A stretch of DNA of 63,594 nt, counting the filler, from Candidatus Aminicenantales bacterium (GTDB taxonomy: Bacteria > Acidobacteriota > Aminicenantia > Aminicenantales > Saccharicenantaceae), in assembly GCA_049512315.1 (NCBI GenBank). It is 4 parts of 4 records of this genome, joined end to end, with 100 filler letters (N's around TTAATTAATTAA, not from the genome) between each part and the next. Parts side by side here need not be neighbours in the genome. Positions count along the whole stretch, not along the records: positions 52,386 to 63,594 come from JBEKXF010000055.1; 3 more parts are not named here. The stretch is one strand, 5' to 3'. The notes under the pieces are model-generated. The model was not told where the DNA came from. It saw nothing but the letters and a program-made list of their open reading frames with translations, and made no database searches. Made by a program: the position numbers and the translations under genes. Shown here piece by piece: positions 41,540 to 63,594 of the stretch (within the stretch, counting starts at the first letter, position 1; each line of letters opens with the position of its first letter).

Positions 41540-42435
41540 GGGACCGTTTCCTCGATCGTTTCGATCCCGCCGAGGTCGGCCCGGCCCAGGCCCATTTTTT
41601 CTGCGGTGAGCAGATAAGCGGGCTCGCGGCCTTCCTCGGCGAGCGAGGGGAGGCCCTTGGCGGCCCGGAATCGTTCGATGAGGGCCCAGCCGACGCGGTC
41701 GGCCGCCACCGGGTCGAGGCTGAAGATGAAGCCGCCGTACCGTTCCGCCCACTGGGGATGGAACGACGGCCCCCGGTGATACTGGACGACGAGGCAATCC
41801 AGGACGGAGATCCTGTGTTTGCCCTTGACCGGAGGCGAATCGAAGACCTCGGGGACAAAGGGGTTGCAGTGGAAATCATGGTACTTGTTGGGATTGTGGA
41901 TGGCGCCGAAGTAATTCTTCATCCCGGCCGTGACCCCGGCCAGGCCGTGGTCCTTGAGAATGGCCAGGCTGACGGAGGCCGTTACGAGATCCGCTTGGAT
42001 CTTTGAAAAGAGGCTGCCGATGTTGAGGTGGGAGACGAGCTCCGAGCCGTAGCCGGCCCCGTCCGTGTCCGTCCCGAACACATGGAACCCACCCCCACCC
42101 GCGGCGAGCCTGTAGCCGGCGTCACGGAGCTCGCGGTTCGTCCTGTCCCAGATGATGATATTTTTTTCCGCCAGGCCGTTCCGCGAGATCCAGCCCGCCA
42201 GAGCGAGGGAAATCTCGGGACGGGTGCTGATCGCCCGGCCGCCGATCGTGTTGACCTTGATCCCGACCCGGTCCTCCGGCCGGAAGACCGAGAGGACGGC
42301 GCTCCTCTCTTCACGTTCCCCCGTCAGGAGCCCGAATCCTCTGGAAAACATCTTGAGGATCCTGGCCTGCTCTGCTGGGCTGCCCGGATCCGTGAGGCCG
42401 CCCGACCGGACGATGACGACTCGGGAATTGGCCAT
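41536..42435 (-). CDS. DUF362 domain-containing protein
   Basis: VGIKVN, IIIWDR, LKDHGLAGVTAGMKNYFG, SLDPVAAD. Confidence 0.85.
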   Translation of the reverse strand: MANSRVVIVRSGGLTDPGSPAEQARILKMFSRGFGLLTGEREERSAVLSVFRPEDRVGIKVNTIGGRAISTRPEISLALAGWISRNGLAEKNIIIWDRTNRELRDAGYRLAAGGGGFHVFGTDTDGAGYGSELVSHLNIGSLFSKIQADLVTASVSLAILKDHGLAGVTAGMKNYFGAIHNPNKYHDFHCNPFVPEVFDSPPVKGKHRISVLDCLVVQYHRGPSFHPQWAERYGGFIFSLDPVAADRVGWALIERFRAAKGLPSLAEEGREPAYLLTAEKMGLGRADLGGIETIEETVP

Positions 42436-42600
42436 GGCAAATCCATGATGACCGCTTTTTCCGGGGTTGTCAACAAACCCTCCTCGTAAGGCGGGCGGGA
42501 ACCGGCATGGTGCCACCCATCTCTTCGGGAAAGTCTCTGAGCTTGCCAAGTCCACTTCGGTCGTCTATATTAGTTTCATGAGAATGCGCGGAGGTTCAGC

Positions 42601-43539
42601 ATGAATGCGATCCATTGGGATAGATTCGCGGCCACCCTCACTCTCCTCTTGGCGCTGACGATCTTGTCCACGGCGTCGGCGCCGGCCCAGGAGAGGAAGG
42701 CCAATCCGGCCCTGGCGGCCCTGCTTCCGCAAGCCGAAGCCTGGAAACCAGCCGAAGCGCCGCAGAGCTTTTTCTCCGAAAGCCTCTATGAGTATATCGA
42801 CGGGGCCGCCGAGAGCTATATGAGCTATGACTTCAAGGAGCTTCTCGTCGTCCAGCTCAAGAAGGAGGGGACGGAGGCCACCCTGACCGTCGAGATCTAC
42901 GACATGTCGGGGCCGGGCAACGCATTCGGCATCTTCAGCGCTGAGCGGTACCCTGAGAACAAGCCCGTTCCGGTCGGGGACCTCGGGTACCTCGAAGGCG
43001 AGGCGCTGAATTTCCTGTCAGGACGCTACTATGTGAAGCTCCTCAGCTTCGGCCTGGGAGAAGGGACCGCCCCGGCCCTGACCAATTACGGCCAGAGGAT
43101 CGCCGGGGCCGTCCCGGAAAAAGGCGGCCTCCCGCCCCTTCTTCGGGTGTTCCCGCCCGGGGGGCTTGTCGCCCGGAGCGAAAAGTTCGTCAAGAAGAAT
43201 TTCCTGGGCTACGAGTTCCTCCACGACGGCTTCCTGGCCACCTACAAGATTGATGGCCAGGAGGTCGACTGCTTCGTGGCCGCGGCGGACTCGGAAAAGG
43301 AAGTCGAAACGGCGCTCGGCCGGCTCCTGGACTTTTTCGCCAAGGACAAGCAGGTTCCGGAAAAGACGGCCCTGGGTTATCGCGTCAAGAACCGCTATTC
43401 CCAGCTCACGTATATCGGCCATGTCCGGAACGTCCTCTGCGGCGTCCTGCGGGTTCCCGACGGCCTGGGATCGGCCGGAGAAAAACTGCTCGGGGCGTTG
43501 ACGGATTCGCTGGCCAAGATTCTGGCCGCCAAGGGTTGA
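42601..43539 (+). CDS. Secreted DUF6599-like protein
   Basis: Signal peptide; LYEYIDGAAESY, VEIYDM...AFGIFS.ER, GRYYVK. Confidence 0.7.
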   Translation: MNAIHWDRFAATLTLLLALTILSTASAPAQERKANPALAALLPQAEAWKPAEAPQSFFSESLYEYIDGAAESYMSYDFKELLVVQLKKEGTEATLTVEIYDMSGPGNAFGIFSAERYPENKPVPVGDLGYLEGEALNFLSGRYYVKLLSFGLGEGTAPALTNYGQRIAGAVPEKGGLPPLLRVFPPGGLVARSEKFVKKNFLGYEFLHDGFLATYKIDGQEVDCFVAAADSEKEVETALGRLLDFFAKDKQVPEKTALGYRVKNRYSQLTYIGHVRNVLCGVLRVPDGLGSAGEKLLGALTDSLAKILAAKG

Positions 43540-43594
43540 AACCCTGCGGATCGCACCTTTTGAGCGGGAGAGACGCACGATAAAAGGCCCGGCA

Positions 43595-44614
43595 GTGGAT
43601 GACCATAAATTTTTCCGCTTCTCGGTCGGCCTGATCCTTATCTTTGTCCTGGGGATTGTCCTGAAGGCGGCCCGGGAGGTCATTTATCCGTTCATTCTCG
43701 CCATTTTCATCTCTTATGTCGTCGACCCGATCATGGCTTTTCTCCAGCGACTCAAGATCCCCAAAGCGGCGGCCGCCGCCATCATCCTCCTCGGGGCCTT
43801 CGTCGTCCTTTCCCTCATCGGCCTCGTCGTCTATTCGAGCGGGAAAACCCTGGCCGCGGAGCTCCCCCGGTTTGAGCAGAGACTGACCGACCTCACGGGG
43901 TGGCTCGAGAAAGGTGTCGGCGGGATCCCTCTCAAACGCCAGGTCGCCTCTTATATCGAAAAGATCAACCTCCAGGGTGCCGCCTCCTTTGTGCTGGGGG
44001 CCCTGGGCCCCATCCTCGGGCTCTTCGGCAAGCTCTTTCTCCTTTTCCTGTTCCTGGCCGTCATCATGTTCGGGAGGGGCAGAATCACGGTCAAGGTCCG
44101 GAAATTCCTGAGCCCGGAGAGGTCAGCCCAGGTTATGGAGGCGCTCGAAAAGATCAACTTCCAGGTCCGGAAGTACCTGGTGATCAAGACTGTCTTGAGC
44201 CTCATCAACGGGTTCATTGTCTGGGCCGTCCTCGCGCTGTTCGGCGTGGATTTTGCGCTCCTCTTCGGCTTCCTGGCTTTCCTTCTGTATTACATCCCGA
44301 ATATCGGCTCCCTGGTCGCCACCGTGCTCCGGGTCGGTTTTGCCCTGTTCCAGTTCGGGACGATTTGGACCCCGCTCTGGGTCCTTGTCATCACCGTCGG
44401 AGCGGACAATGTCCTGGGGAACATGATCGAGCCCCGGATGATGGGCAAGGGACTCGGTTTGAGCCCTCTCGTCCTCATTTTTTCTTTGGTCTTCTGGGGT
44501 TGGCTCTGGGGGATCCCCGGGATGGTCATGGCGGTCCCCCTGGTCGCGGTCATCAAGATCGTCTGCCAGAACGTCCCTTCGCTCCGGCCGGTCGCCGTCC
44601 TGATCGGCTCTTAA
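43595..44614 (+). CDS. AI-2E (PerM/TqsA) family transporter
   Basis: YLVIKT, YIPNIGS, GNMIEPRMMG..LGLSPL, WGWLWGIPGMVMAVPL. Confidence 0.92.
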   Translation: MDDHKFFRFSVGLILIFVLGIVLKAAREVIYPFILAIFISYVVDPIMAFLQRLKIPKAAAAAIILLGAFVVLSLIGLVVYSSGKTLAAELPRFEQRLTDLTGWLEKGVGGIPLKRQVASYIEKINLQGAASFVLGALGPILGLFGKLFLLFLFLAVIMFGRGRITVKVRKFLSPERSAQVMEALEKINFQVRKYLVIKTVLSLINGFIVWAVLALFGVDFALLFGFLAFLLYYIPNIGSLVATVLRVGFALFQFGTIWTPLWVLVITVGADNVLGNMIEPRMMGKGLGLSPLVLIFSLVFWGWLWGIPGMVMAVPLVAVIKIVCQNVPSLRPVAVLIGS

Positions 44615-52285: not shown

Positions 52286-52385
52286 NNNNNNNNNNNNNNN
52301 NNNNNNNNNNNNNNNNNNNNNNNNNNNNNTTAATTAATTAANNNNNNNNNNNNNNNNNNNNNNNNNNNNNNNNNNNNNNNNNNNN
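52286..52385. other. Artificial contig linker
   Basis: N run with TTAATTAATTAA. Confidence 0.98.
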
Positions 52386-52659
52386 GTTCCTCGGGCAGGA
52401 ACTTCAGGGCGACGGCACGCTTGAGCTTGGTGTCCTCTGCCTTATAAACGACCCCCATCCCGCCCCGGCCGAGTTCCTCAATGATCCTGTACTTTCCGGC
52501 GACGATCACTCCTATGGGCAGCCCTATGGCCGGCGTCTGGAGCGTTTTCGTCAATGAGGAAGGGCCCGCTTCTCCACCACTAAGCGGCGCCGCACAGCTC
52601 CCGCAAAACCGGGAGGTGTCAGGATTCTCAGAATGACACTTGGGGCATTTATTGGCCAA
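52386..52659 (-). CDS. Zinc-ribbon Ser/Thr protein kinase, N-terminal part (cut by contig end)
   Basis: CPKC...CGSC ribbon; [20 protein letters not shown]...VALKFL. Confidence 0.9.
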
Positions 52660-52686
52660 GCGAACTCTCGATCTCCAGCTTAGCCT

Positions 52687-52720
52687 CAGATTAACAGAGG
52701 GATGGGCGGGAAGTCAAACG
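52687..52720 (-). promoter_or_regulatory. Kinase-module promoter, copy A
   Basis: - strand CGT-TTGACT-TCCCGCCCATCCCTC-TGT-TAATCT-G; near-identical copies at 58367-58400 and 63282-63315. Confidence 0.75.
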
Positions 52721-52810
52721 GGGCGTGCCCGGGGCCTCGAAGAAAGCCAATTCCCTGTAGGGGGGATGGGAAAACGAGGTTTTCGGGGGTAACCTGGACG
52801 TACAGGTAGC

Positions 52811-52965
52811 AACTTGTACAGACGGGATGTACAAGTTCCCATATGGGGGGAAACACCCCAAAAACACTAACTAGTACACTTGTACAGTAGAAAAGAGAAG
52901 AGAGAAAAAAAACAGGCCCCCCTTTTTTTCTTCCCCCCTCTACAGGCTGTCCTAGTGTACAAGTT
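52811..52965. repeat. Four ACTTGTACA repeats in alternating orientation (iteron-like)
   Basis: AACTTGTACA 52811, TGTACAAGTT 52828, ACTTGTACA 52878, TGTACAAGTT 52956. Confidence 0.7.
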
Positions 52966-53196
52966 GGAGGCGCTGGCAGTGCGTCCGGGGGGAAGTCGGC
53001 AGACCCCGGCTAAGCTAATAGGGTCCCGGCCAAAGTCCTGCCGGCAGGATTCTAGACCGCCCTCGGGGAAAACGTCCTCCCGGAGGGAGGTTTGCCAGAA
53101 AACTCACATTATGTCTGGACCATTTTTTAGGGATGAGGCCCCCCGTCACCGAGTCCGAGCCACGAGCCTTGCTGAGGAACTCGGGGCATCCCCCGA

Positions 53197-54969
53197 TCAG
53201 GCCGGTTCGGATCTGAACGAGGACGGCTTGCCGCGCTCGCCGATCTGCTGGCGCCACATGGCGTAGTAGAGTCCCTTTTGCCCGAGCAACTGTTGGTGGG
53301 TTCCCGATTCGACGATCTTCCCCTGTTCCAGCACGTAGATCACATCGGCGTGCATGATGGTCGAGAGCCGGTGGGCGATCAAGATGGTGATTTGTTCCCG
53401 GCTGGCCGAGATCTGCCTGATCGTCCGCGTGATGTCCTCCTCGGTCAGCGAGTCGAGCGCCGACGTGGCCTCGTCGAAGATCAGTAGCCGGGGTTGTCGA
53501 AGCAACGCCCTGGCGATGGAAAGGCGCTGCTTTTCGCCGCCGGAGAGCTTGATGCCGTTCTCACCGATGATCGTATCAATCCCTGCGGCGGCACGGGAGA
53601 GAAACGAGGTCGCCTGGGCTTTGCGCAAGGCCTCCAAGATCTCCTCGTCGGTGGCGTCCGATCTCACGAATTGCATGTTTTCCTTGATGCTGCCGGCGTA
53701 TAGCTGGGTTTCCTGCGTGACAAAACCGATCTGCCTGCGCAAGGGGTTGTAACGGATGTTCGTGGACGAGGCCCTGTTGAAAAAAATGGACCCGCTGACC
53801 GGGCTATAGAGCCCCACGAGCAATTTCACCAGGGTGGACTTCCCCGATCCCGAAGGGCCGACAATGGCGATGGTTTCTCCGGACCGGACATCGAACGAGA
53901 TGCCGTCAACGGCGTTGAACGACGCGGTCCTGTGCCGGAAGACCACGTTCTCGAAGCGGATCCTTTCCAGCGGGCCGATCTCATCGGGATTTTCGGGGCG
54001 GCGCTCGATGGGCTTTTTCATGAGCGTGTCGAAAGTATGGATGGACGCGTCCACTTCCCGGTATTGCAGGATGATATTCCCCATGTCCTGCAAAGGCCCG
54101 AAAATGGCGGTGGAGATGAACTGCATGGCGATCAGCTGGCCGGTCGTCAGAACGTGGCGGAAAATGAGCCACAGCAGGATGAACAGGATGGATTGTTTGA
54201 GCAGGTTCAGCGCGGTCCCCTGCAGGAACGTGAGCGAGCGGACCTTCCGGGCCTTCGTCATCTCAAGATCGTAGATGCCGCGCGTCTGGCCGCCGAGACG
54301 CTTGATCTCCTGGAAGGTCAGGCCCAAACATTTGACCAGCTCGATGTTCCGCAGGGACTCGGTGATGACCCCCGACAGGCGATAGGTTTCCCGGTTGATG
54401 GACCGCTGGACGGTCTTGATCTTTTTCGAGAGCAGGCCCGTGAGAAAGCCCAGCACGCCGATGCCGACGAGAAAAACGGGGATCAGCAGCCAGCTTTTCG
54501 TGATGCTGTACCAGATCAGGAAGCCGATACCGATGATCGAGGAAAACAGCACGTTGATCAGGGAATCCACGAAACGCTCGGTATCGGTCTTCACCTTCTG
54601 CATGACGGAGACGGTTTCGCCGCTGCGGCTTTCTTCGAATTCCTGGAAGGAGAGCCGCAGGGTCTGTTTCAGGCCGTCGTTAAAGACGTTCATCCCGAAG
54701 CGGGCCACGGCCATGCGCGAAAGATATTCCTGCAGCGCCCTGAACAGCCTGGCCAGCAAGGCGATGGCGATGGCCAGGGCAAGCCAGAAAAGCACCCCGC
54801 GGACGAGTTCGTTCTCCGGGCGGTCGCCGCGGCCTGTGGCGTAGCCGTCGATGATCTTCCCGAAAATGATGGGGTCGATCAGGCTGAGTAATTGCGCCAG
54901 CAGCGCCGACAACAAGGAGACGATGATTAGCCCTTTATGGGGTTTCAGATATTTCCAGAGGATTCGCAT
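53197..54969 (-). CDS. ABC exporter, fused permease/ATP-binding (MsbA-like fold)
   Basis: TM domain; GPSGSGKST, LSGGEKQR, FDEATSALD, IAHRLS; likely ATG 54969. Confidence 0.93.
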   Translation of the reverse strand: MRILWKYLKPHKGLIIVSLLSALLAQLLSLIDPIIFGKIIDGYATGRGDRPENELVRGVLFWLALAIAIALLARLFRALQEYLSRMAVARFGMNVFNDGLKQTLRLSFQEFEESRSGETVSVMQKVKTDTERFVDSLINVLFSSIIGIGFLIWYSITKSWLLIPVFLVGIGVLGFLTGLLSKKIKTVQRSINRETYRLSGVITESLRNIELVKCLGLTFQEIKRLGGQTRGIYDLEMTKARKVRSLTFLQGTALNLLKQSILFILLWLIFRHVLTTGQLIAMQFISTAIFGPLQDMGNIILQYREVDASIHTFDTLMKKPIERRPENPDEIGPLERIRFENVVFRHRTASFNAVDGISFDVRSGETIAIVGPSGSGKSTLVKLLVGLYSPVSGSIFFNRASSTNIRYNPLRRQIGFVTQETQLYAGSIKENMQFVRSDATDEEILEALRKAQATSFLSRAAAGIDTIIGENGIKLSGGEKQRLSIARALLRQPRLLIFDEATSALDSLTEEDITRTIRQISASREQITILIAHRLSTIMHADVIYVLEQGKIVESGTHQQLLGQKGLYYAMWRQQIGERGKPSSFRSEPA

Positions 54970-55073
54970 GCCGGAATGATATTGCCCCGGCTTGGGCGAT
55001 GTCAATCTGACCTGCTCCCCTGGGGTGTCAGGCCTCATAGGAGTCCAAAAAGCCACTATCAATAACCCCACTA

Positions 55074-55118
55074 ATCCGGAGACGCGGCTCGATCCATCGC
55101 GTCCTTGATACGCGATCT
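55074..55118. repeat. About 45-bp direct repeat shared with 59818-59862
   Basis: ATCCGGAGACGCGGCTCGATCCATCGCGTCCTTGATAC vs ATCCCGAGACGCAGCTCGATCCATCGCGCCCTTGATAC. Confidence 0.8.
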
Positions 55119-55180
55119 GTCACTTGTTCCAAAGGATCCGTCGTCAGCAAAGGGAATAGCCGATTCATTTGCGCGAAACG

Positions 55181-55228
55181 TGGCGTGCCTGAGAGGATTC
55201 GAACCTCCGACCTTTGGATCCGGAGTCC
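55181..55228 (-). repeat. tRNA-Arg(CCG) 3'-half fragment (att-like)
   Basis: - strand GGACTCCGGATCCAAAGGTCGGAGGTTCGAATCCTCTCAGGCACGCCA: anticodon loop, T-arm and CCA present; no D-arm or 5' acceptor strand. Confidence 0.85.
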
Positions 55229-55347
55229 TTTGTTCAAATTGCCTCCGGGGCAGATCTCAAAGCCCCGTTAATTCATCGCTGTAATCGGAGCGGCAGCAAC
55301 CGTTCTTATAAGATAATTGTTTCTGTTATTTGTTAGATGCTACGGGC

Positions 55348-56118
55348 TCAAACCGGCGCTTTGCGCGCCAGGTACAGGGTGCGGCAACCGCGCGTAATCA
55401 ATGGACTTTTGAAGAATGGGGCCGCGTCCCGGGTAAGCACGCGGTCGAACCCCGCCTTCTCCAATACACCGCGGATTTCCTTCGCACTCCAGCAAACTTC
55501 CTCTACATGTTCGTGCCGGCGCCGCCAGATCCCCCGCCCGCCCCCGATAAACCATTCAACATCGACCCACGCGCGGTCTTTGCGCGCGTCATTGCCATTG
55601 CGCATCACCATCACCACACCCGGCTTCTCGTTCCACCAGATCCCGGTCCAGTAACGCCTGAAACCTGCGCGGTTGTTGACATCGAAATAGAACCAGCCTC
55701 CCGCTCGCAACGCACGCGCCGCGCATTTGGCAACCGCTGCCAAGTCCGCTTTGTGATTGACATGATTGATCGCGTCGCCTTCACAGGTAATGAGGTCCAC
55801 CCTTTCCGGCAAGCGAAAGCTGCGCATGTCGGCGCGAAGGACCCGAATCGAAACACCCGCGCGCAGAGCCTTCTCCCGAGCCAGGCGGCACATCCCCGGG
55901 GAGAGATCTACGGCGATCGTCCGAATCCCCATCGTGGCAAGCTTCACGGCTGCTGTGCCTGATCCACAGGCCAGGTCGCACGCGGACCGCACCCTCGGCA
56001 GGATCGGGCCAACTACGGCCTGACGCGCCGCATCCGCCACGCCTACAAAAGGCCCGAACATCAGATCGTAGTACTTAGCCGTCCACTTATAAGGTCGGTT
56101 GCGAGTCCTGGAAATCAT
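55348..56118 (-). CDS. Class I SAM-dependent methyltransferase
   Basis: DLACGSG, VDLSPGM, ADMRSF, DAINH, GGWFYFD. Confidence 0.9.
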   Translation of the reverse strand: MISRTRNRPYKWTAKYYDLMFGPFVGVADAARQAVVGPILPRVRSACDLACGSGTAAVKLATMGIRTIAVDLSPGMCRLAREKALRAGVSIRVLRADMRSFRLPERVDLITCEGDAINHVNHKADLAAVAKCAARALRAGGWFYFDVNNRAGFRRYWTGIWWNEKPGVVMVMRNGNDARKDRAWVDVEWFIGGGRGIWRRRHEHVEEVCWSAKEIRGVLEKAGFDRVLTRDAAPFFKSPLITRGCRTLYLARKAPV

Positions 56119-56356
56119 GCTGTATCTCCCAAGCGGACTGAATCTGCGATGTGACCTGTCCCCGCCCAATGTACCACCTCTATAGTGAAGTTTTCAAACG
56201 ATTGGACGTGCCGCCTCTGTAGTCATGATGTCAAGATTCATGACGTGTTGGGAGCTAATATGGGCTTAAAGCGGCTTAAAGGAACATAAAGCTGGTTTTC
56301 GCTGCCCGAAAGCGCAACTCGTTGATCTTCTCGGGGCAACAGGGGGGGGAAGTGAG

Positions 56357-56404
56357 TGGCCTGCCTGAGAGGATTCGAACCTCCGACCTTTGGATCCGAA
56401 GTCC
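56357..56404 (-). repeat. tRNA-Arg 3'-half fragment (anticodon reads TCG), 46/48 identical to 55181-55228
   Basis: - strand GGACTTCGGATCCAAAGGTCGGAGGTTCGAATCCTCTCAGGCAGGCCA. Confidence 0.85.
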
Positions 56405-56605
56405 GTAACGCCTATGCATGTCTATTTGCATAATCGCCTACGATTATCTCCTCATATTCTTATCGGCGTGCTCCGCGCTTGTGCCACATTTGTGCCACAT
56501 AGGGGGCCAAATGTGGGCAATTCGGGGCAAGCACAGGCAGAGTTGATAGCCCTCCGGCTCGGGGCCTAAATCTCTGATATTGGTGCCTTATATGGGGGGA
56601 TTTAA

Positions 56606-56662
56606 TGGAGCCAGCGAGAGGGATCGAACCTCCGACCTGCTGATTACGAATCAGCTGCTCTA
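56606..56662 (-). repeat. tRNA-Thr(CGT) 3' fragment (att-like)
   Basis: - strand TAGAGCAGCTGATTCGTAATCAGCAGGTCGGAGGTTCGATCCCTCTCGCTGGCTCCA; upstream sequence cannot pair with the acceptor stem. Confidence 0.85.
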
Positions 56663-56847
56663 GCGTTTCAACTTACTGATAATAAAGGTAATTAGGTGGG
56701 GCGCCCAATCGATTGGGCTCAGATTGTGCTCACCTTCGGTGCTGCCACGAATTGGTGATCAGCTGCCCGTCAGCCCGGCCAGCCGCTTCCTGGCATCCTC
56801 AACCTCGGGCAATCGCGTGTCGGTGTCTTTCTATAAATCTGCGGTGC

Positions 56848-58125
56848 CTATTTATCATGCCGGAATATTTGACCGTCTTTCATGACGAACATGACCCTCT
56901 GAAGCGCCGTGATGTCCTGCAATGGATCGCCCGGCACGGCCACGATATCAGCCATCATTCCGGGGGCCAGATGACCTATTGAAGCAGATTGGCCGAGCAA
57001 TTCGGCGGCGACGGAGGTCCCTGCTTTGATGGCATCCATGGGACTAAAACCGGCTTTTTTGACCAAGAGCTCGAATTCCTTTGCTTGGTTGACCGACCAG
57101 GGAAAGGAACCGGCATCTGTGCCGAGGGCGATCTTCAGCCCTTTTTTGTAAGCGCTATGAAGTCCCTTGTATTCTATTTCAAGCAACTGTTTCTCTAGCG
57201 GGGGCTGGCTGTTATCAAAAGGGTATTCAAATACTGACAAGGTCGGGCACCAATAGACTCCCTGAGTCTTCGCTTGGTCGATTAAGCTATCATCAAACCC
57301 GCTTCCGTGCTCGATGCTCTCTACTCCGGCTTCCAGAGCCGCTTTGATTCCATTCCGGCTGATGGCATGAGCCGCAACCTTGTGCTCGAGTCTATGGGCT
57401 TCATTCACCATAGTCGCGAGTTCTTCGCGGGTGAAATTCGTCAGGCCCGATATGCCTCCATCTTTATCAATAAAGAACGGCCAATCCACATAGATTTTGA
57501 TCCAATCCGCGCCATTGGCGACCTGCTCTCGAACTGCCTTGAGGCACTCATCAGTCCCAGTGACCATTTGAGCCCCTTTGGGAAGATCGAGTTCCCAGGA
57601 GTAATCAAAGGGCATGTAGCGTCCCAATGTGTTCAACCCACGCGTCGAGACCCATAATCGGGGACCCGGGATGAGGCCCATGTTGATCGCCTTATTCACA
57701 TCCACGTCGGCATACATGGCCCCTTCGGATTCGACATCCCGCAACGCCGTAAAGCCGTTCCAGAGAGCTTTGCGGACGTTGGCGACCGCGCGAATGGTCC
57801 GGAAGGGAGTCGAATTCTTGTAGAGATCGGCCCCATAATCAGGGGAGCCATCCGCCATGATATGGGTGTGGCAGTCGATGAATCCGGGAAGGACGGTTTT
57901 GTCGCTGAGATCGACAATGACGGCATCCTTGGGAATGGCGGCATTCTCGCCAAGCGCGGTGATCTTGTCCCCTTGGACGATGATGTTGACATTGCGTCGC
58001 ATCTCCGCACTCTGACCATCGATAAGTCTTCCGGCTTTGATGACATAGGTCTGATCCGCCGAAGCAACGATGGCCAGAAAAAAGAGACCTCCTAGGATCA
58101 AGAAGCACTTGCCCGTTTTACTCAT
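56848..58125 (-). CDS. Secreted amidohydrolase (Xaa-Pro dipeptidase/ochratoxinase-like)
   Basis: ATG 58125 after GAGGAGG; PGFIDCHTH, WIKIY, AAHA, IEHG, GTDAG, ADIVAV.GDPL. Confidence 0.9.
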   Translation of the reverse strand: MSKTGKCFLILGGLFFLAIVASADQTYVIKAGRLIDGQSAEMRRNVNIIVQGDKITALGENAAIPKDAVIVDLSDKTVLPGFIDCHTHIMADGSPDYGADLYKNSTPFRTIRAVANVRKALWNGFTALRDVESEGAMYADVDVNKAINMGLIPGPRLWVSTRGLNTLGRYMPFDYSWELDLPKGAQMVTGTDECLKAVREQVANGADWIKIYVDWPFFIDKDGGISGLTNFTREELATMVNEAHRLEHKVAAHAISRNGIKAALEAGVESIEHGSGFDDSLIDQAKTQGVYWCPTLSVFEYPFDNSQPPLEKQLLEIEYKGLHSAYKKGLKIALGTDAGSFPWSVNQAKEFELLVKKAGFSPMDAIKAGTSVAAELLGQSASIGHLAPGMMADIVAVPGDPLQDITALQRVMFVMKDGQIFRHDK

Positions 58126-58199
58126 CACCCCTCCTCTTTGCCAAGATTCTCGGCACATCATATCTGTTTGCCCATCCGTCCCGGCGGCTTCCGACGGCC

Positions 58200-58339
58200 G
58201 GGGGCAGGTGTTCGGAGAGTTTCCGTCACGGCCGGAGGATCGTCTTGGAGAGGGGAGGTGCATGGTGCCGCCTCCCACCCCCGCCGAACTTCACGGTTTT
58301 GGCATTCTCAGAATGACAGGTCGTACACTTGATGGCCAA
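58200..58339 (-). pseudogene. Decayed 5' end of a zinc-ribbon Ser/Thr kinase
   Basis: TTG start, MAIKCTTCHSENAKTVKFGGV; shifted frame PAVTETLRTP; parallels [12 protein letters not shown]...LTKTLQTP at 52659. Confidence 0.75.
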
Positions 58340-58366
58340 GCGAGCTCCCCTTCTCTAGCTTGGCCT

Positions 58367-58447
58367 CAGATTAACAGAGGGACGGGCGGGAAGTCAAACG
58401 GGGCGGGCTGAGAGGATTCGGATTTCCGACCTTTGGACCCATAGTCC
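58367..58447 (-). repeat. Degenerate tRNA-Arg 3' fragment (58401-58447) directly followed by kinase promoter copy B
   Basis: + strand CAGATTAACAGAGGGACGGGCGGGAAGTCAAACG-GGGCGGGCTGAGAGGATTCGGATTTCCGACCTTTGGACCCATAGTCC. Confidence 0.8.
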
Positions 58448-58584
58448 ATTTCCTTCCGATCTAGTCCGAATGGAGGACCCCCGTTAAGATTAATAATTCA
58501 GGATTATCCCTGTTTTCGGATAATCAAAAAAATGCTAATTTTGAGAAATCAGTATTATAATAAGCGTGTCGGGAAACCCTAGGG

Positions 58585-59772
58585 ATGCGTGTTCTTGCTC
58601 TTGGTGGAGCGAGTTTGTATGGTAAGAATGCCTGCAGCATTCTGGCTTCGAGCAGTCTTGTTTCTGAAATCCTGATAGCGGGAAGGAACCTGGAGACCGC
58701 CCAAAAATGCGCCAAAGATATAGGGGGGAAGGCGAGGGCAGCTTCCGTTGACGTTGCGGACCGAGGCAAGCTGATCGCTATAGCAAGGGACTGCGACATC
58801 ATTCTAAACACGACCGGTCCCGAATACGAGACTGTTTTGGACGTCCTCAATGCCGCTATCACGGCGGGCAAAAACTACTGCGACATCGGGGCGGACGGTC
58901 CCACAACAGAAGCGGCTCTGAAACTCGACTTGACGGCAAAAGCTAAGGGTGTCACGGCGTTGGTGGGGATAGGTGCCTGTCCTGGCGTGGCGAGCCTAAT
59001 GATGCTGCACGCGGCCCGCCAGCTGGACAGGGTGGAGAAGGTCAGTTCGTGCGGCTTCTTTCCGGCTGCCGCGCTCGGCATCACGAAAGACCTGGTCAGA
59101 AGCTACAGAGAGACTGGGCGCCTCTCCGCGGGGATGCAGATGCTCACGAAATGGGTCACGCCTCCGTTCCCTGGCTACCGAGGGGGGGTGTCGGCACCCA
59201 TCAGCAATGAGGCGGATGAAATGAACGTGACGATGCCCGGAAAGGGCGAGATTCCTGCTGTACTAGTGGGGAGCCCTGAAGCCGTTACCATTCCCCGGTC
59301 CATCCCCGAGATCCGAGAGGTCTACACTCTTGTCAGCTGGTTCCCCTTTCAGCTGAATGGAATGTACAGGCAGCTAGGAGCACGAGCAGCAAGGGGCGAG
59401 CTCAATTGGTCGCAAGCGACTCTGGATTTCCTCGACCTGATTGTCGCAGAGCAGGATCGAGAGCTGCCGGCCTCGGCCGGATTCCCGAGAGACGGTGTGC
59501 GCTGGGTAGAAGCGGTCGGAATCAAGAAGGGTAATCGAATGAGGTACTATTGCTCGCCCACGCCCATCTGGTACGGTTGGAACAATAATCCAACTTCCGC
59601 AGCCCTGGCCCTCGCGACCTTGAAGATCCTCGGAGGCGAGATAAGAACCCATGGAGTCTTGACGCCCGAGTCGTGTCTTGATCCTCTTCCTTTCATCAAG
59701 GAAGTCGCTCGTCAAATGGCGAAGATAGACGAAACGGGCAATCTCCTAGAAGAAGCCTGGCAGCAGCTGTAG
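58585..59772 (+). CDS. Saccharopine dehydrogenase-like NAD(P)-binding oxidoreductase
   Basis: VLALGGASLYG, IAGRN, NTTGP, YCDI, GIGACPG, GVLTPE. Confidence 0.85.
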   Translation: MRVLALGGASLYGKNACSILASSSLVSEILIAGRNLETAQKCAKDIGGKARAASVDVADRGKLIAIARDCDIILNTTGPEYETVLDVLNAAITAGKNYCDIGADGPTTEAALKLDLTAKAKGVTALVGIGACPGVASLMMLHAARQLDRVEKVSSCGFFPAAALGITKDLVRSYRETGRLSAGMQMLTKWVTPPFPGYRGGVSAPISNEADEMNVTMPGKGEIPAVLVGSPEAVTIPRSIPEIREVYTLVSWFPFQLNGMYRQLGARAARGELNWSQATLDFLDLIVAEQDRELPASAGFPRDGVRWVEAVGIKKGNRMRYYCSPTPIWYGWNNNPTSAALALATLKILGGEIRTHGVLTPESCLDPLPFIKEVARQMAKIDETGNLLEEAWQQL

Positions 59773-59790
59773 AAATCAATAGGTTTTCTT

Positions 59791-59825
59791 CTGAGGGATT
59801 CGACCTCCGACCATTGGATCCCGAG
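59791..59825 (-). repeat. Degenerate tRNA-Arg T-arm/anticodon fragment
   Basis: + strand CTGAGGGATTCGACCTCCGACCATTGGATCCCGAG vs CTGAGAGGATTCGAACCTCCGACCTTTGGATCCGGAG. Confidence 0.75.
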
Positions 59826-59863
59826 ACGCAGCTCGATCCATCGCGCCCTTGATACAGGATCTC

Positions 59864-60412
59864 CTATTTTGGCGAGGATTTGGTTTTGGTCCACTTACTC
59901 TCATACTGCGGCATCCACGTCTTTCCGTCGACAGATATTTCCTGCTTTGACACCGAGCTCATAAGATCGGGGGCAAAGACGCAGCTCCCTCTGAACTTAT
60001 ACTGCTTTTCTCCTAAGAAGTGGGTCCCGGAATAGTTTACCGTGTTGGCTTCAATCGTATAAGCAGCCGTTTCGAAGGACCCGTCGCTAGAAAAGTTGTT
60101 CCACATGAACTTCATGTTCACTGCGTCGTAACCATCGATCTCAAACCACTGGGTGGTTCCCGAAGGCCCTTTCTCTTCTGCGCGCCACTCCACGAAGAAA
60201 CCACCCAAGACGGGCCGGACTGTTGCCATCCCACTATATTTCCCTGCGGGTCCGAGCGGATTAGCCTTGGCCTCTCCTTCATAGGTCCATTTTCCGACCC
60301 AGATTTCCAGCTTCTTTTGTTCCGGGCCGGGCTTTGGAGCCGGTGTCTGTGCCCAGGCGAAGACCGCGAAGACCAAAAGAACCACGCTTACTGCAATAAC
60401 AAACCGTTTCAT
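59864..60412 (-). CDS. Secreted DUF1579-like beta-barrel protein
   Basis: Signal peptide; PKPGPEQKKL..WVGKW, LGGFFV, GYD, DGKTW. Confidence 0.7.
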   Translation of the reverse strand: MKRFVIAVSVVLLVFAVFAWAQTPAPKPGPEQKKLEIWVGKWTYEGEAKANPLGPAGKYSGMATVRPVLGGFFVEWRAEEKGPSGTTQWFEIDGYDAVNMKFMWNNFSSDGSFETAAYTIEANTVNYSGTHFLGEKQYKFRGSCVFAPDLMSSVSKQEISVDGKTWMPQYESKWTKTKSSPK

Positions 60413-60832
60413 GAAACCCCCTCCTGTTTACGGAATTCATAGATTAGGGAGAAAAAAAGGCACCTTCACAAAAAGCGGACGATTAGCTAACTTCTTACTG
60501 ACCCCAGTATTGCCCTAATCTACTATGCCTTAATCTATAGCATTGCGAGAATACGAAGTCAATAGGCTGCGCCTAGTTCCTGAGCTCCCCCTGCGGAATT
60601 ATCAAACCAACCCAAATGAAAATCCACATAGTATGTGACACGGTGGGGTGGTCTGCGTTTTCCCCTGGAGCGAGTCACGCAAGGTCCCAAACTTTGTGCA
60701 TATGGTCAGAAATGCAGGAAGATCAATTTATTAAGAATATGGGTCGCCCACTTTTCAACAGACTTATTCACGAAAGCTGTGAATAACCGGGGTGGATGAG
60801 TTGGCTCCGACGAACTTCATAGATCAAAGTTC

Positions 60833-60901
60833 CTAAAGACCGGCCAGCCGCGTCTTGGCGTCCGCAACCTCGGGCCGGCCCGGGTCGGCGTCCTTCCAGA
60901 G
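60833..60901 (-). pseudogene. Orphan C-terminal tail of another kinase-TPR type protein
   Basis: LWKDADPGRPEVADAKTRLAGL* begins 2 nt after the stop of 60904-63135; no start codon. Confidence 0.6.
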
Positions 60902-60903
60902 CA

Positions 60904-63135
60904 TCACTCCTCAAAATGCTCCCATTCGTACTTCACGCGCTCCATGAGCTTCTGGAACCGCTCCTCGCCGCGGATATTGGCCAGGAAGGGGTCGAGCTCG
61001 CTCATGAGGGGGTAATTGCTCATGCCGAGGTCGACGTCCTGCTCCAGACAGTCGAGGGCCCTCTCTTTTTCGCCGATTAAGGCCAAACACTCGGTCTTCC
61101 AATAAGTGGTTTGAAAATCCCACGGGTTCTGGAGGTTAGGATTCGAGTCGAGCATGGCCAGCGTCTCGGACCTTTTTCCCTCCAGAGCGCATTTGAAAGA
61201 CAGGCCCAGGCATGCGAAGAGGTTCCCCGGCTGTTCCCGGGCCACTTCCTCGAAGATCGACCCGGCCTCCTCTTTTCGGCCCATGTAGGCAAGGCTCAGG
61301 CCGTAGCTCCATTTCGTCATCACGTCCTCGGGGAACGATCGATGGAGCTTGTCCAGCCTTTCGAGAGCGAGGGCATATTCTCCATCCCACATCCTGTTGA
61401 ATCCGGAATGAACATGGGCCAGGGCATTGAGGGGGTCGATCTTGATGGTCATTTCCTCGAGAGGAATGACGACGCGCGTTCGGCCCAACGTTCCGAGCAA
61501 ACAACTGAGGAAAAACAAAGTATCAAAATCATTGGGATTCTTTTCCAGGACGCGCTTGAAATACGCGATGCCCTCCTTATGATGATGCCAAGCGATGAGA
61601 TTCCCCTGGACGAAATTGGCGATGGAACAGTTCGGATCCAAAGCGAAGGCCTTGCGGACGTAGTCCTCGGCCTGCCTCCGGCTGTCTCCCTCTCCCTTGA
61701 GGCCGAGATTGCAATATTGGAAATGAACATAGGCCATGCCCCCATAGAGAAGCGCGTTCTCTCCAACGATCTCGAGGCCGTTCCTGAGGTACTTCAATGC
61801 GTTTCCCAGTCCTGCCTCCGTCCACTTGAGGATTTCCTGCCGGGCTTTGAGATAAAATTCGTAGGCCAGAGCGCTCGGGATGGGGCGTTCGGCCAGGTGC
61901 TCGGTTTCCTCCGGAGTTAGTTTGAGCTTCAAGGCATCGACGATGGACTGCGAGACCTTCTCCTGGATATCGAATACATCGTCCAGGGTCCCGCCGTACT
62001 TCTCGGCCCAGAGGTGGGCGTCGTTAAAGGCATCGATGAGCTGGGCGGTGATCCGCAAGTTGTTGCCGGCCTTCCGGACACTTCCCTCCAGAACATATCG
62101 GACATGGACCTCGCGGGCGATGGCGGGGATATCCTTCTTTGTCCCTTTGAAGATCATGGATGACGTGCGCGAGATCACCCGCAGGGAACGGATCTTGGAC
62201 AGGTCCGAGATGAGCTCCTCGGTCATGCCGTCGCAGAAATAATCCTGTTCCGGGTCCGCGCTGATATTCTCGAAGGGCAGGACGATGATCGATCTCTCGG
62301 GCTGGGCGGCGCTAAGGCCCGGAATCCGCGCTGTTTTGAGGTCCTCGAGGACCTCGGCCATGTTCTGGTACCGGAGGGACCGATCTTTCTCGAGGGCCTT
62401 TTGAACGAGCCGCTCGAGCGGAAGGGGAATGTTCGGGCGAAGACGGGTCAGAGGCTCGGGATTATCATGCAATATGGAATAGACGAGAGCCTGGTCGCTT
62501 CTCCTACCGAACGGCATCACTCCGGCAAGCATTTCATACAACGTCGCCCCGAACGACCAGATATCCGTGCGCTGGTCCACCGCTTCTCCTTTGGCCTGCT
62601 CGGGGGACATATAAGCGGGAGTCCCCGTCACCGCCAGCGTCTTTGTGACATCGGCGGCTGAAGCGAGCTTGGCCAGCCCGAAGTCCATGATCTTCGCCTG
62701 GCCCTTTTCCGTCAGCATGATGTTCGCCGGCTTGATGTCCCGGTGGATGATGCCTTTCTGGTGGGCTTCTTTGAGGCCCTCGGCGACCTGGCCGGCGATA
62801 TCCAGGGCCTCCTCTAAAGATAAAGGTCCGGCTCCGATCCTATCCTTCAGGCTCTGGCCTTTGACGCAGGGCATAGCGATATACGTCGTGCCTTCGGCCT
62901 CGTCGATCTCATAGACGGCACAGATGTTCGGGTGGTCCAGGGCTGCTGCGGCCTGAGCTTCTTGGATGAAACGAGCCTTGGCCTGCGGATCTTTGGTCAG
63001 CTCGGGCGGCAAGAACTTGAGGGCTACGGTACGCTTGAGTTTGGTATCTTCGGCTTCGTAGACGACGCCCATCCCGCCTTCGCCGAGCTTGCCAATGATC
63101 CTGTAATGGGCAATCATTTCGCCGGTCACCCTCAC
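60904..63135 (-). CDS. Ser/Thr protein kinase with TolB-N-like domain and TPR repeats (start may be 63129 or 63117)
   Basis: GEGGMGVVY, VALK, HRDIKPAN, DFG, YMSPEQ; SIIVLPFENIS...YFCDGMTEELI...EGSVRKAG; TPRs. Confidence 0.94.
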   Translation of the reverse strand: MRVTGEMIAHYRIIGKLGEGGMGVVYEAEDTKLKRTVALKFLPPELTKDPQAKARFIQEAQAAAALDHPNICAVYEIDEAEGTTYIAMPCVKGQSLKDRIGAGPLSLEEALDIAGQVAEGLKEAHQKGIIHRDIKPANIMLTEKGQAKIMDFGLAKLASAADVTKTLAVTGTPAYMSPEQAKGEAVDQRTDIWSFGATLYEMLAGVMPFGRRSDQALVYSILHDNPEPLTRLRPNIPLPLERLVQKALEKDRSLRYQNMAEVLEDLKTARIPGLSAAQPERSIIVLPFENISADPEQDYFCDGMTEELISDLSKIRSLRVISRTSSMIFKGTKKDIPAIAREVHVRYVLEGSVRKAGNNLRITAQLIDAFNDAHLWAEKYGGTLDDVFDIQEKVSQSIVDALKLKLTPEETEHLAERPIPSALAYEFYLKARQEILKWTEAGLGNALKYLRNGLEIVGENALLYGGMAYVHFQYCNLGLKGEGDSRRQAEDYVRKAFALDPNCSIANFVQGNLIAWHHHKEGIAYFKRVLEKNPNDFDTLFFLSCLLGTLGRTRVVIPLEEMTIKIDPLNALAHVHSGFNRMWDGEYALALERLDKLHRSFPEDVMTKWSYGLSLAYMGRKEEAGSIFEEVAREQPGNLFACLGLSFKCALEGKRSETLAMLDSNPNLQNPWDFQTTYWKTECLALIGEKERALDCLEQDVDLGMSNYPLMSELDPFLANIRGEERFQKLMERVKYEWEHFEE

Positions 63136-63255
63136 TCCTCAAAATGCTCCCATTCGTACTTCACCCGCTCCATGAGCTTTTTGAACCGTTCCACCCCCGC
63201 AGAATTTCAGGGTATCAGGATTCTCAGAATGGTAGGTCGGGCACTTGATGGCCAC
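63132..63255 (-). pseudogene. Collapsed kinase gene: about 20 N-terminal codons joined out of frame to the last 19 codons
   Basis: VAIKCPTYHSENPDTLKFCG then ERFKKLMERVKYEWEHFEE*; 63132-63188 is a near-perfect direct repeat of 60904-60960. Confidence 0.85.
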
Positions 63256-63281
63256 CGCTGGCCCCCTATCTTTGCTGGCTT

Positions 63282-63335
63282 CAGATTAACAGAGCGATGG
63301 GCGGGAAGTCAAACGTGGCGTGCCCAGAAAGGAGA
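63282..63335 (-). promoter_or_regulatory. Kinase-module promoter copy C preceded by a tRNA acceptor-end remnant
   Basis: - strand GGGCACGCCA-CGT-TTGACT-18 nt-TAATCT. Confidence 0.75.
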
Positions 63336-63388
63336 TGGCTTGTGAATACAAGACCAGGGACCCCCTCGTAGATCTTGGCGTGCACAGG

Positions 63389-63594
63389 TGACCCGCCCCC
63401 GATCAATGTACCAGCCCTTGAGTGAATTTTCCAGCCAAATATGCCTCCGGAGCCGGCGGCCTATAGCCTAACGAGCTATGCGGCCTGAAGCGATTGTATT
63501 CCCTTCGCCAGCCCTCGACAAGGACCTTCGCTTCCGCCAAGGTGTCCAGCACCTCGCCATTGAGAAGCTCATCCCGGAGCTTCCCGATATAGGA
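63389..63594 (-). mobile_element. Right end of an IS3-family (IS407-like) element, transposase C-terminus
   Basis: GKLRDELLNGE...WRREYNRFRPHSSLGYRPPAP* followed by GGGGGCGGGTCA end; the ESFN motif appears deleted. Confidence 0.8.

Follow-up and report, generated by a model that had tools for sequence, protein, structure and literature searches.

The hallmarks of integrons are intI, attI, Pc, attC hairpins built from imperfect inverted repeats, and promoterless cassettes that are co-oriented. Cis-mobilizable elements (CIMEs) of Streptococcus are said to be flanked by attachment (att) sites, to lack integrase and transfer genes, to stand in tandem with related elements and to be movable in trans (Pavlovic et al. 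2004, as cited in PMC3146451). In the tandem ssrA islands of Dehalococcoides, according to the parts of the published account that concern them, more than twelve copies of the RNA gene's 3′ end stand as direct repeats among strain-specific cargo (McMurdie et al. 2011, PMC3146451); a six-gene integration module that includes a serine integrase is retained in 16 islands, the repeat corresponds to 20 bp of the transfer-messenger RNA, and 15 islands that have no such module were put forward as cis-mobilizable elements assembled by accretion (PMC3146451). Portions of the literature on Acinetobacter plasmids describe pdif modules of 1–2 genes between 28-bp XerC/XerD sites of alternating orientation, which are shuffled between replicons (PMC6449649, PMC13141974), and it is standard knowledge that fragments of tRNA genes are the attR ends that integrated elements leave (Reiter 1989; Williams 2002; both as cited in PMC9897764). 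Here we describe an 11,209-nucleotide (nt) contig of an uncultured peat bacterium, a Candidatus Aminicenantales (JBEKXF010000055.1, hereafter C55), on which 3′ pieces of tRNA genes alternate with single genes. C55 is probably an accretion array of integrase-less, CIME-like modules at att scars that was later reshuffled, and as such a piece of the flexible genome.

The window, that is, the whole 63,594-nt stretch analysed, is composed of four contigs (C47, C48, C49 and C55) of one metagenome-assembled genome (MAG), G000. They are joined by spacers of 44 N, TTAATTAATTAA and 44 N, so that neighbourhood across window positions 20168–20267, 36313–36412 and 52286–52385 is meaningless. The feature studied is the entire contig C55 (52386–63594). 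G000 comprises 3.55 Mb in 77 contigs, at 96.6% completeness and 1.3% contamination; it belongs to genus g1 and was compared with 86 other genomes of its family. A preliminary description of C55 had listed pieces of tRNA-Arg, two acceptor-end stubs and a tRNA-Thr piece, all on the minus strand and none of them complete. These were found in place by ARAGORN (which detected no tRNA gene in the window), a repeat finder and Rfam. The longer pieces and the arm sequences next to them are as follows.

55074–55118, minus strand: element-arm repeat ending in the anticodon-loop letters CTCCGGAT, without a tRNA 3′ part behind it; 89% identical to 59818–59862
55181–55228, minus strand: tRNA-Arg(CCG) 3′ piece, positions 30–77 including CCA; 48/48 to C11:94706–94753
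56357–56404, minus strand: tRNA-Arg(CCG) 3′ piece; 46/48
56405–56560, minus strand: arm sequence 5′ of the 56357–56404 piece, with direct repeats TGTGGCACAAATGTGGCACAAG (from reading the sequence)
56608–56673, minus strand: tRNA-Thr(CGT) piece of g5/g6 type that starts at about position 9 and reaches the CCA end; Rfam 30.4 bits
56694–56831, minus strand: arm of the tRNA-Thr site; 138 nt 81% identical to C14:7310–7447, with about 15 shorter copies
58399–58447, minus strand: decayed tRNA-Arg(CCG) 3′ piece fused to a kinase 5′ module; 76%, score 30 against a null 99th percentile of 11
59791–59862, minus strand: decayed attR-like site made of an arm (59862–59826), anticodon-loop letters and a tRNA-Arg T arm with deletions; 65% to the reference

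The repeat finder placed the tRNA-Arg pieces in one family, with a reference copy at 55180–55228 and further copies at 56356–56404 (96%), 58399–58447 (76%) and 59780–59828 (65%), which the tRNA-Thr piece (56605–56653) joins as a related copy. Read on the minus strand, 55228–55181 equals positions 30–77 of the intact tRNA-Arg(CCG) gene of G000 (C11:94677–94753) at 48 of 48 letters, from the anticodon stem through the encoded CCA, and 56404–56357 matches that gene at 46 of 48. The weakest copy (59791–59828) is supported by its 45-nt flank, 59818–59862, which ends in anticodon-loop letters; this arm occurs twice on C55, here followed by a decayed tRNA part and at 55074–55118 by unrelated sequence. 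The tRNA-Thr piece exceeds the Rfam gathering score (30.4 bits against 29) over model positions 9–63 (56617–56673, minus strand), and the six other Rfam matches in the window, with E values up to 10, lie far under their gathering scores. The direct repeats TGTGGCACAAATGTGGCACAAG next to the second tRNA-Arg piece constitute a putative arm-type binding site, and a similar AAATGTGGC(A/T)CA motif lies 5′ of tRNA-Arg pieces in the relatives G018 and G021. By-eye translation of the last 60 nt of the tRNA-Thr arm (56772–56831) reads as a C-terminal remnant, ...KDTDTRLPEVEDARKRLAGL..., of a tetratricopeptide repeat (TPR)/kinase paralog.

Across G000, multiplication is confined to the 3′ parts of tRNA genes. 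The 3′ halves of tRNA-Arg(CCG), tRNA-Arg(CCT) and tRNA-Thr(CGT) gave 20, 12 and 6 matches, and the 5′ parts gave a single match for 47 of the 49 tRNAs; a reversed control pattern had 0 matches in 41 genomes. Pieces of tRNA-Arg(CCG) of at least 30 nt number 23, on 12 contigs, and C24, C26, C27, C28 and C34 are rich in pieces; they are co-oriented within most contigs, with both orientations on C2 and C24, and are interleaved with pieces of Arg-CCT, Thr-CGT, Lys-CTT and Leu-CAA. Their 5′ boundaries cluster at tRNA positions 19–21, 28–29 or 32–33. When 26 rows of at least 30 nt (including two intact genes and one third tRNA-like sequence) were aligned, 7 shared an arm of about 130–170 nt 5′ of the piece, with tRNA identity starting at position 19–21. 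This arm carries TGTCACA repeats that are also present 3′ of the intact tRNA-Arg gene, and it precedes two pieces in the relative G012; a second arm class is common to C24:17571, C27:3559 and C66. Because only 3′ parts are multiplied, the 5′ boundary is constant, arms remain attached and relatives display an intact gene followed by pieces, the pieces are, on these comparisons, att-type scars, the origin that had been proposed for them.

The arms were also considered as the end of an IS110 insertion sequence (IS), perhaps with a bridge RNA, and this was rejected: the seven copies share only about 137–170 nt, with no transposase. The IS110-type transposase that adjoins a tRNA-Arg piece on C14 is explained by insertion of the IS into the arm. 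Searched as exact 45-mers, the tRNA-Thr and tRNA-Arg pieces had 0 matches in viral contigs, a result that is neutral on carriage by phages. Half of the 12 Arg-CCT 3′ pieces (6) lie co-oriented on C28 beside two Arg-CCG pieces, and others are on C24 and C27; with its pieces so multiplied, tRNA-Arg(CCT) would be a third tRNA site feeding similar arrays in G000; some of these matches may be cross-matches between the two Arg species.

The same architecture, cleaner and younger, is common in two related genera, where such arrays sit on contigs of 0.16–1.7 Mb. An intact tRNA-Arg(CCG) gene is followed by co-oriented pieces in G012 (at spacings of 5 and 3 kb), G024 (4.4 and 1 kb), G021 (16, 6 and 5.5 kb) and G018 (32 kb). 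In G067, the intact tRNA-Thr(CGT) gene (C3:20933–21008) is followed by 8 co-oriented pieces in 21 kb, spaced 0.76–6.9 kb apart and with 7 exact copies of a 39-mer, and contig C15 of G070 has 9 co-oriented tRNA-Thr copies over 33 kb, 6 of them exact. With up to 2 mismatches allowed, the tRNA-Thr 39-mer is found in 43 of the 87 family genomes, 13 of which hold at least 3 copies. In all 22 tRNA-Thr copies that were aligned, tRNA identity begins at the anticodon loop even though the arms are of several classes, and a 5′ boundary that stays constant despite differing arms fits a site-specific crossover. Behind several tRNA-Thr pieces, no more than about 25 nt away, comes a decayed tRNA-Arg piece or else the promoter-like boxes of a kinase module described below; kinase modules with a fossil tRNA-Arg end have thus apparently moved again via tRNA-Thr sites.

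Some details of these copies stand apart. The richest case seen is G056, with 17 copies of the 39-mer (12 exact) on seven small contigs. The intact tRNA-Thr(CGT) gene of G059 (C25:11166–11239) ends in ...GGCTC-TC and has no encoded CCA, and the displaced pieces nearly all end in ...GGCTC-CA. Copies ending in ...CTC, possibly intact genes, occur in eight other genomes (including G012:C12, G014:C5 and G024:C6), and the intact gene of G067 has CCA.

Between the pieces of C55, Pfam confirmed the genes that had been listed: an ATP-binding cassette (ABC) exporter, a methyltransferase, an amidohydrolase, a saccharopine dehydrogenase-like protein, a DUF1579 protein and a Ser/Thr kinase with TPR repeats.

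53197–55071, minus strand: gene for an ABC exporter in which membrane and ATPase domains are fused, its start probably at 54969; Pfam ABC_membrane and ABC_tran
55348–56169, minus strand: class I S-adenosylmethionine-dependent methyltransferase gene; Pfam Methyltransf_25 and Methyltransf_11
56848–58278, minus strand: amidohydrolase gene, open reading frame (ORF) from GTG at 58278, with a signal-peptide-like start at 58125; Pfam Amidohydro_1, E 1e-34
58585–59772, plus strand: gene for a saccharopine-dehydrogenase-like NAD(P)-binding protein; Pfam Sacchrp_dh_NADP, E 1e-10
59864–60412, minus strand: DUF1579 protein gene; Pfam DUF1579, E 1e-10, with paralogs on C26, C40 and C42
60904–63135, minus strand: Ser/Thr protein kinase with TPR repeats, 743 amino acids (aa); Pfam Pkinase, E 3e-54, and TPR families

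The C55 array is in none of the 86 other genomes, nor do two of its modules occur there jointly in the C55 order; a comparison of cassette order between strains had been suggested earlier. Single modules recur in other genera, at up to 97% identity. The ABC gene (53143–54975) is 97% identical to G012:C1:45911–47744 (genus g6) and 90% identical to a copy on G041:C5 (g5). The block 56841–58440, which comprises the amidohydrolase gene, a kinase 5′ remnant and a tRNA-Arg piece, is 97% identical to a copy on G059:C25, 85% to one on G070:C15 and 82% to one on G067:C3. This block is bounded by a tRNA-Arg piece and a tRNA-Thr piece in G000 and G059, and by tRNA-Thr pieces on both sides in G070 and G067, and its neighbours differ in each of the four genomes. 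In the 97% copy of G059, the tRNA-Arg piece that corresponds to 58399–58447 is exact over positions 36–77, and the tRNA-Thr arm (56694–56831) is absent. The kinase gene (60904–63135) reaches 83% with copies on G077:C9 and G059:C100. As a control, 20 kb of ordinary DNA from C47 matched the same g6 genomes only in small parts, at 63–92%, and its long matches were at 80–87%; against this background the 97% modules look recently transferred. On sequence grounds, then, at least two modules look like recent horizontal transfers from other genera, the ABC exporter and the block running from the tRNA-Arg piece through the amidohydrolase to the tRNA-Thr piece.

The tRNA-Thr piece bears on the same point. 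Its 39-mer is exact in many g5/g6 genomes and, within genus g1, exact only on C55, and the tRNA-Thr(CGT) gene of G000 itself differs from the piece in the T arm, with a match of only 91%. The piece is therefore of a foreign type and was imported with its module rather than made on C55. C55 thus mixes tRNA-Arg scars with a tRNA-Thr scar foreign to its genus, the intact tRNA-Arg gene lies on another contig (C11), and the pieces are spread over 12 contigs in both orientations, so the stacking of all units at one tRNA-Arg att, as first supposed, is not supported. In the genome-wide search for fragments that the preliminary description had recommended, the 23 pieces were dispersed and not gathered at one locus.

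Profile searches with Pfam found no match to PF00589, PF00239 or PF07508 on C55 and no mobility genes in its methyltransferase and amidohydrolase units, as expected of units that had been described as integrase-less. Elsewhere in G000 there are 13 PF00589 matches and 3 resolvase-domain matches, two of the latter also with PF07508. An integrase of 361 aa and an Xis-like HTH_17 gene lie directly 5′ of a tRNA-Arg piece on C24, and an integrase fragment lies at a tRNA-Arg piece on C66, so that the search proposed earlier for an intact tRNA-Arg and an adjacent integrase ended with the gene on C11 and the enzyme beside a piece. On C2, a large serine recombinase of 513 aa (42139–43718) overlaps a tRNA-Arg(CCG) 3′ piece with its 3′ end; the piece lies 349 nt after a tRNA-Met, and a flank similar to this one follows the intact tRNA-Arg in G003, of the same genus. 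Among NCBIfam models, XisF and CcrB/CcrC come nearest to the serine recombinase, which falls far short of the cut-off of each. The C24 integrase with its Xis-like partner and the C2 serine recombinase are candidates for enzymes acting in trans.

The arrays of four g6 relatives were scanned with Pfam (G012:C1:40000–53096, G059:C25:8000–27000, G067:C3:1–36000 and G070:C15:1–50000). The 74 ORFs covered were 46 of the 50 with a minimum length of 80 aa and 28 of the 29 with a minimum of 90 aa, the 5 omitted running off locus ends; they included no integrase, resolvase or transposase families. Their cargo consists of kinases, amidohydrolases, peptidases, an AAA/DUF4143 ATPase, PD40, a resistance–nodulation–division (RND) efflux set, LuxR and others. 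Six-frame PF00589 matches in the four genomes all fall outside the arrays, and PF00239 and PF07508 have no match in any of the four. G070 (85% complete) has two PF00589 matches, whose scores exceed the equivalog cut-offs of XerD and XerC; G059 and G012 each have two full-length matches and one weak remnant; and in G067 one further integrase stands some 32 kb from the tRNA-Thr gene, on the opposite side of it from the array. Six-frame PF00589 searches found no integrase-bearing tRNA-Thr element in the genomes searched.

We consider it rather likely that these observations reflect the following history. Mobile elements would have integrated site-specifically at tRNA-Arg(CCG) and tRNA-Thr(CGT), with a crossover at or near the anticodon loop that duplicated the 3′ portions, and each scar would still abut element arm sequence. 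The 1–3.5 kb stretches between scars would be integrase-less modules of the cis-mobilizable kind, gathered by tandem accretion, moved as units by recombinases in trans and later reshuffled by recombination at tRNA-derived sites and among paralogous kinase genes. Consistent with the CIME pattern, the methyltransferase unit is flanked by the pieces at 56357–56404 and 55181–55228, and the amidohydrolase unit by those at 58399–58447 and 56608–56673. Integrase-bearing sites at tRNA-Arg pieces, possible related autonomous elements, exist in G000 (C24 and C66). The two tRNA-Arg pieces at 65–76% are likely too decayed to be working sites, and where we speak of continued working of any C55 site, we infer it.

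Several points weigh against this account. C55 is not connected to the intact tRNA-Arg gene, so that an array at a tRNA gene is unproven here, and the interleaved pieces of different tRNAs are not the product of simple serial integration at one gene. The boundaries of the ABC module fit gene-level exchange better than att-bounded transfer: homology sets in about 6 nt ahead of the start codon and extends to about 55 nt past the stop, and G000 and G012 are unrelated over the approximately 200 nt that separate the gene from the closest tRNA-Arg piece. The scan of the relatives' arrays covered ORFs above the 80–90 aa limits that lie wholly within the loci, so short ORFs and the 5 at locus ends fall outside it, and the relatives are 73–95% complete, so that a missing integrase may sit in unassembled DNA. 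The order of modules on C55 rests on the original assembly alone, because public unitigs of four runs stop within the 48-nt tRNA repeats, and in the unitigs of the two runs that contain the strain, which likewise break at repeats, no excision product, empty site, circle junction or module-sized deletion was seen.

The breaks also invite the suspicion that C55 is a chimeric or mis-binned product stitched together at shared repeats. It is a short contig bounded by repeats, it carries near-identical 48-nt copies, and the unitigs end in exactly these. We nevertheless regard an artefact as very improbable. Each unique segment of C55 is present at 11–15× with 0–4 differences in two independent peat metagenomes, of 2020 and 2025; the two best tRNA-Arg repeats differ at 2 positions and are short relative to the read length; like arrays occur on the long contigs of relatives; and the contamination of G000 is 1.3% at a completeness of 96.6%. 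The four public runs contain 92–99% of sampled words, and two of them are possibly the source of G000. Joints listed from reads belonged mostly to paralogs of other organisms at 90% likeness. In two sediment runs (X5 and X6), the ABC and amidohydrolase modules are present at 3–9% divergence, in X6 together with the kinase module, and the methyltransferase gene (55348–56169) has no depth in either run; we take these matches solely as agreement with the 97% modules in other genera, not as evidence of habitat. C55 may or may not lie behind the intact gene: that gene stops 1.4 kb short of the C11 end, with an IS110-type transposase after it, and C55 ends in a multi-copy IS3-type element that also terminates six other contigs. 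In general, tRNA pieces of this kind break assemblies, as the short, repeat-bounded C55 and the unitigs ending at pieces illustrate, and they yield near-tRNA matches in annotation, with one C55 piece passing the Rfam tRNA threshold.

The arrays of relatives raise a bolder possibility, namely that recombinase-less single-gene modules are still being inserted, excised and reordered at tRNA-derived sites by an enzyme acting in trans, in the manner of an integron without attC. In such a chromosomal cassette system, the 3′ ends of tRNA-Thr(CGT) and tRNA-Arg(CCG) would be the sites at which gene-sized modules are captured, stacked and reordered; the enzyme would possibly be the integrase of a transient element or, in genomes like G070, the host Xer pair, and the system would also have driven expansion of the zinc-ribbon Ser/Thr kinase family. 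Arrays of 8–9 or more modules, spaced 0.76–9 kb apart and marked by mostly exact 39-mers, would be young or maintained, and no recombinase gene lies in the 36–50 kb of array sequence scanned. The tyrosine recombinases seen in G070 are XerC and XerD alone, and no serine recombinase is seen there; G067 and G070 have amidohydrolase, DUF4143-ATPase and PD40 modules in common, in a different order; the amidohydrolase block is flanked by tRNA pieces in 4 genomes; and tRNA identity has a sharp, constant 5′ boundary. Set against this are the lack of a circle or empty-site junction in the unitigs, which break at repeats, a C55 array that is unchanged in samples dated 2018–2025, and the decay of two of the four C55 tRNA-Arg pieces, together with ABC boundaries that fall at the gene and not at an att site. 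The cargo, moreover, lies in both orientations, the kinase modules have promoter-like boxes of their own, no fixed integrase with a primary site heads any array examined, and integrases are possibly hidden in unassembled parts of the MAGs. We therefore entertain active cassettes only tentatively and think a system of this kind somewhat unlikely. If modules do move as units, single-gene-scale capture and the expansion of paralogs would be joined in a large uncultured lineage and would make use of tRNA-gene att sites, in a manner between genomic islands and integrons, and the relatives' arrays, with up to 17 copies of one 39-mer, mostly exact, and no integrase seen, offer a concrete test system.

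The graded state of the C55 pieces (100, 96, 76 and 65%) could also come from serial decay, in which full islands with integrases were whittled down by random deletion, modules were never mobile as units and sharing between genera took place by ordinary gene-level recombination. The truncated site at 55074–55118, the collapsed kinase gene at 63139–63255 and the confinement of ABC homology to the gene agree with this, as do integrase remnants elsewhere, such as the C66 fragment and the weak partial matches in G012 and G059. Random deletion is, however, unlikely to clear 9 neighbouring units of every integrase and yet leave 7 of 8 pieces unchanged, or to give the amidohydrolase block the same tRNA bounds in four genomes with different neighbours, and the C55 tRNA-Thr piece is foreign and was imported with a module. 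Decay alone thus seems to us improbable as the whole explanation, and we return to accretion followed by reshuffling.

Reshuffling among paralogs is visible in a unit in which a Ser/Thr kinase with a zinc-ribbon start is preceded, in this order, by a tRNA-Arg 3′ end, a TTGACT box and a TGnTAATCT-like box. Its copies and derivatives on C55 are listed here.

52386–52659, minus strand: zinc-ribbon Ser/Thr kinase gene, 5′ part only, truncated where the contig ends; Pfam Zn_Ribbon_1, E 7.7e-8, with many paralogs in the genome
52660–52733, minus strand: kinase 5′ module with TTGACT box, TGnTAATCT-like box and tRNA-Arg stub (about 52722–52733); repeat families D2/D3, stub score 10
58199–58398, minus strand: remnant of a kinase 5′ module (boxes and zinc-ribbon start) before the amidohydrolase gene; 74–81% to at least 10 kinase 5′ regions
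60832–60901, minus strand: C-terminal remnant LWKDADPGRPEVADAKTRLAGL, followed by a stop, of another TPR/kinase paralog, right after the kinase stop; about 12 copies at 82–93%, by-eye translation
63139–63255, minus strand: collapsed kinase gene with the zinc-ribbon start joined to the C-terminal end, a 38-aa ORF; from the ORF and repeat matches
63256–63328, minus strand: kinase 5′ module with tRNA-Arg stub (about 63316–63328); repeat family D2, stub score 12

G000 has 19 copies of this unit (22 pattern matches minus 3 spurious ones), and the boxes are, from their sequence, a putative promoter of the kinase modules. In 10 of the 19, the tRNA-Arg remnant scores at or above the null 99th percentile, with five at 30 or more, and the rest keep the last few letters only. 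The C55 pieces at 52722, 58399–58447 and 63316 belong to three of these copies. Both stubs consist of 10–13 nt of acceptor end (GGGCACGCC.CG) immediately 5′ of the conserved TTGACT box; their local alignment scores of 10 and 12 are, taken alone, at or near chance (null 95th percentile 10, 99th 11), and they become convincing because longer remnants hold the same position in paralogous copies. Being carried in a multi-copy kinase module, the stubs and the 58399–58447 piece need not mark integrations on C55; they are fossil tRNA ends inherited with the module. The fossil end before 19 kinase genes is in turn a handy marker for tracing the spread of the kinase family.

The fixed position of a tRNA-Arg end directly 5′ of the TTGACT box in at least 10 of the 19 modules, and the co-orientation of pieces with kinase genes, would also be compatible with pieces that selection maintains because they serve neighbouring genes as RNA or DNA signals, such as processing sites, terminators or insulators ahead of the kinase boxes. 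At this same position, however, remnants range from 49 nt to nothing with no compensating pattern, as neutral decay would predict, and tRNA-Thr pieces do not preserve the anticodon stem's 5′ strand, so that a signalling role seems to us barely credible.

Further signs of recombination among kinase paralogs are the collapsed gene, the 5′ remnant at 58199–58398 and C-terminal remnants of the form LWKDADP...RLAGL-stop, which by-eye translation places after the kinase and after the amidohydrolase. The collapsed gene looks like a paralog whose whole interior was deleted: 63132–63197 is 91% identical to 60904–60969, and 63191–63254 falls in repeat family D4. The stop of this 38-aa ORF overlaps the start of the full kinase gene. 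At the other end of the contig, 52394–52491 is 80% identical to 63008–63105.

Placed beside the known systems, the arrays share with the ssrA islands, as far as the cited passages describe them, co-oriented repeats of the 3′ end of a small stable RNA downstream of its gene (here in relatives). In Dehalococcoides an att repeat lies within the end of a serine recombinase gene (dsiB), according to the same passages, and here a tRNA-Arg piece overlaps the 3′ end of the C2 serine recombinase. Unlike the islands described there, the repeats here are 39–57 nt of tRNA-Arg or tRNA-Thr with arms, the modules are often single genes, the arrays examined contain no integration module, different tRNAs contribute interleaved scars and C55 lacks a link to an intact gene. 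With Streptococcus CIMEs the arrays have in common att-flanked modules without integrase or transfer functions; those elements, in contrast, are few per site beside a cognate integrative and conjugative element (ICE), and here 8–9 or more modules stand in a row with no cognate element adjacent and with putative mobilization.

The likeness to integrons had been part of the original proposal, and it stood for the dense, integrase-less arrays of relatives: the units are short and mostly single-gene, recombination-site repeats lie between them, no recombinase is inside and the content varies between strains. It failed for intI, attI, attC hairpins and promoterless co-oriented cassettes. No intI, attI or Pc is present, no tyrosine recombinase occurs on C55 or in the arrays of G067, G070, G059 and G012, the sites are direct tRNA-derived repeats (no attC model having been run) and genes lie on both strands with their own promoter-like boxes. 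As in the portions of the pdif literature cited above, small accessory modules are bounded by sites for a recombinase encoded elsewhere, and G070 shows only XerC and XerD; unlike the plasmid modules described in those portions, the arrays here are chromosomal and co-oriented, and no dif-like site was seen in their tRNA-derived junctions, which were considered by eye and not searched for the motif. An ordinary phage or ICE attR, in the terms of the section cited for tRNA fragments, is likewise a partial 3′ copy of a tRNA with a crossover in the anticodon or T loop, usually with one fragment per integrase-encoding island of 10–100 kb; here there are 23 tRNA-Arg pieces and gene-sized modules. Judged from sequence, the gene-sized scale, the lack of an integration module in whole arrays, the interleaved tRNA scars and the link to kinase expansion would set these arrays apart from their published kin. 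A limited literature search found no description of such arrays, and we make no claim that they are absent from print.

The remaining features of C55 are repeats of other kinds.

53091–53141, strand not assigned: dispersed 51-nt repeat (...CTCACATTATGTCTGGACCATTTTTTAGGGATGAGG...); about 20 genome copies at 82–93% on many contigs, from blastn of C55 against the genome
56152–56197, strand not assigned: solo repeat copy related to an IS end; 78% to 63388–63433, with 6 further genome copies
63388–63594, minus strand: IS3-type insertion sequence end (transposase C-terminus) that ends the contig; 5′-open ORF ...RPHSSLGYRPPAPEAY...

The last of these is 98–99% identical to the ends of contigs C4, C12, C26, C36, C54 and C62, and through these six other contig ends the element is a main cause of assembly breaks. 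From a motif, the family is presumably IS3. The solo 78% relative of the IS end (56152–56197) lies upstream of the methyltransferase gene, and one copy of the 51-nt repeat lies about 30 nt past a tRNA-Arg piece on C2.

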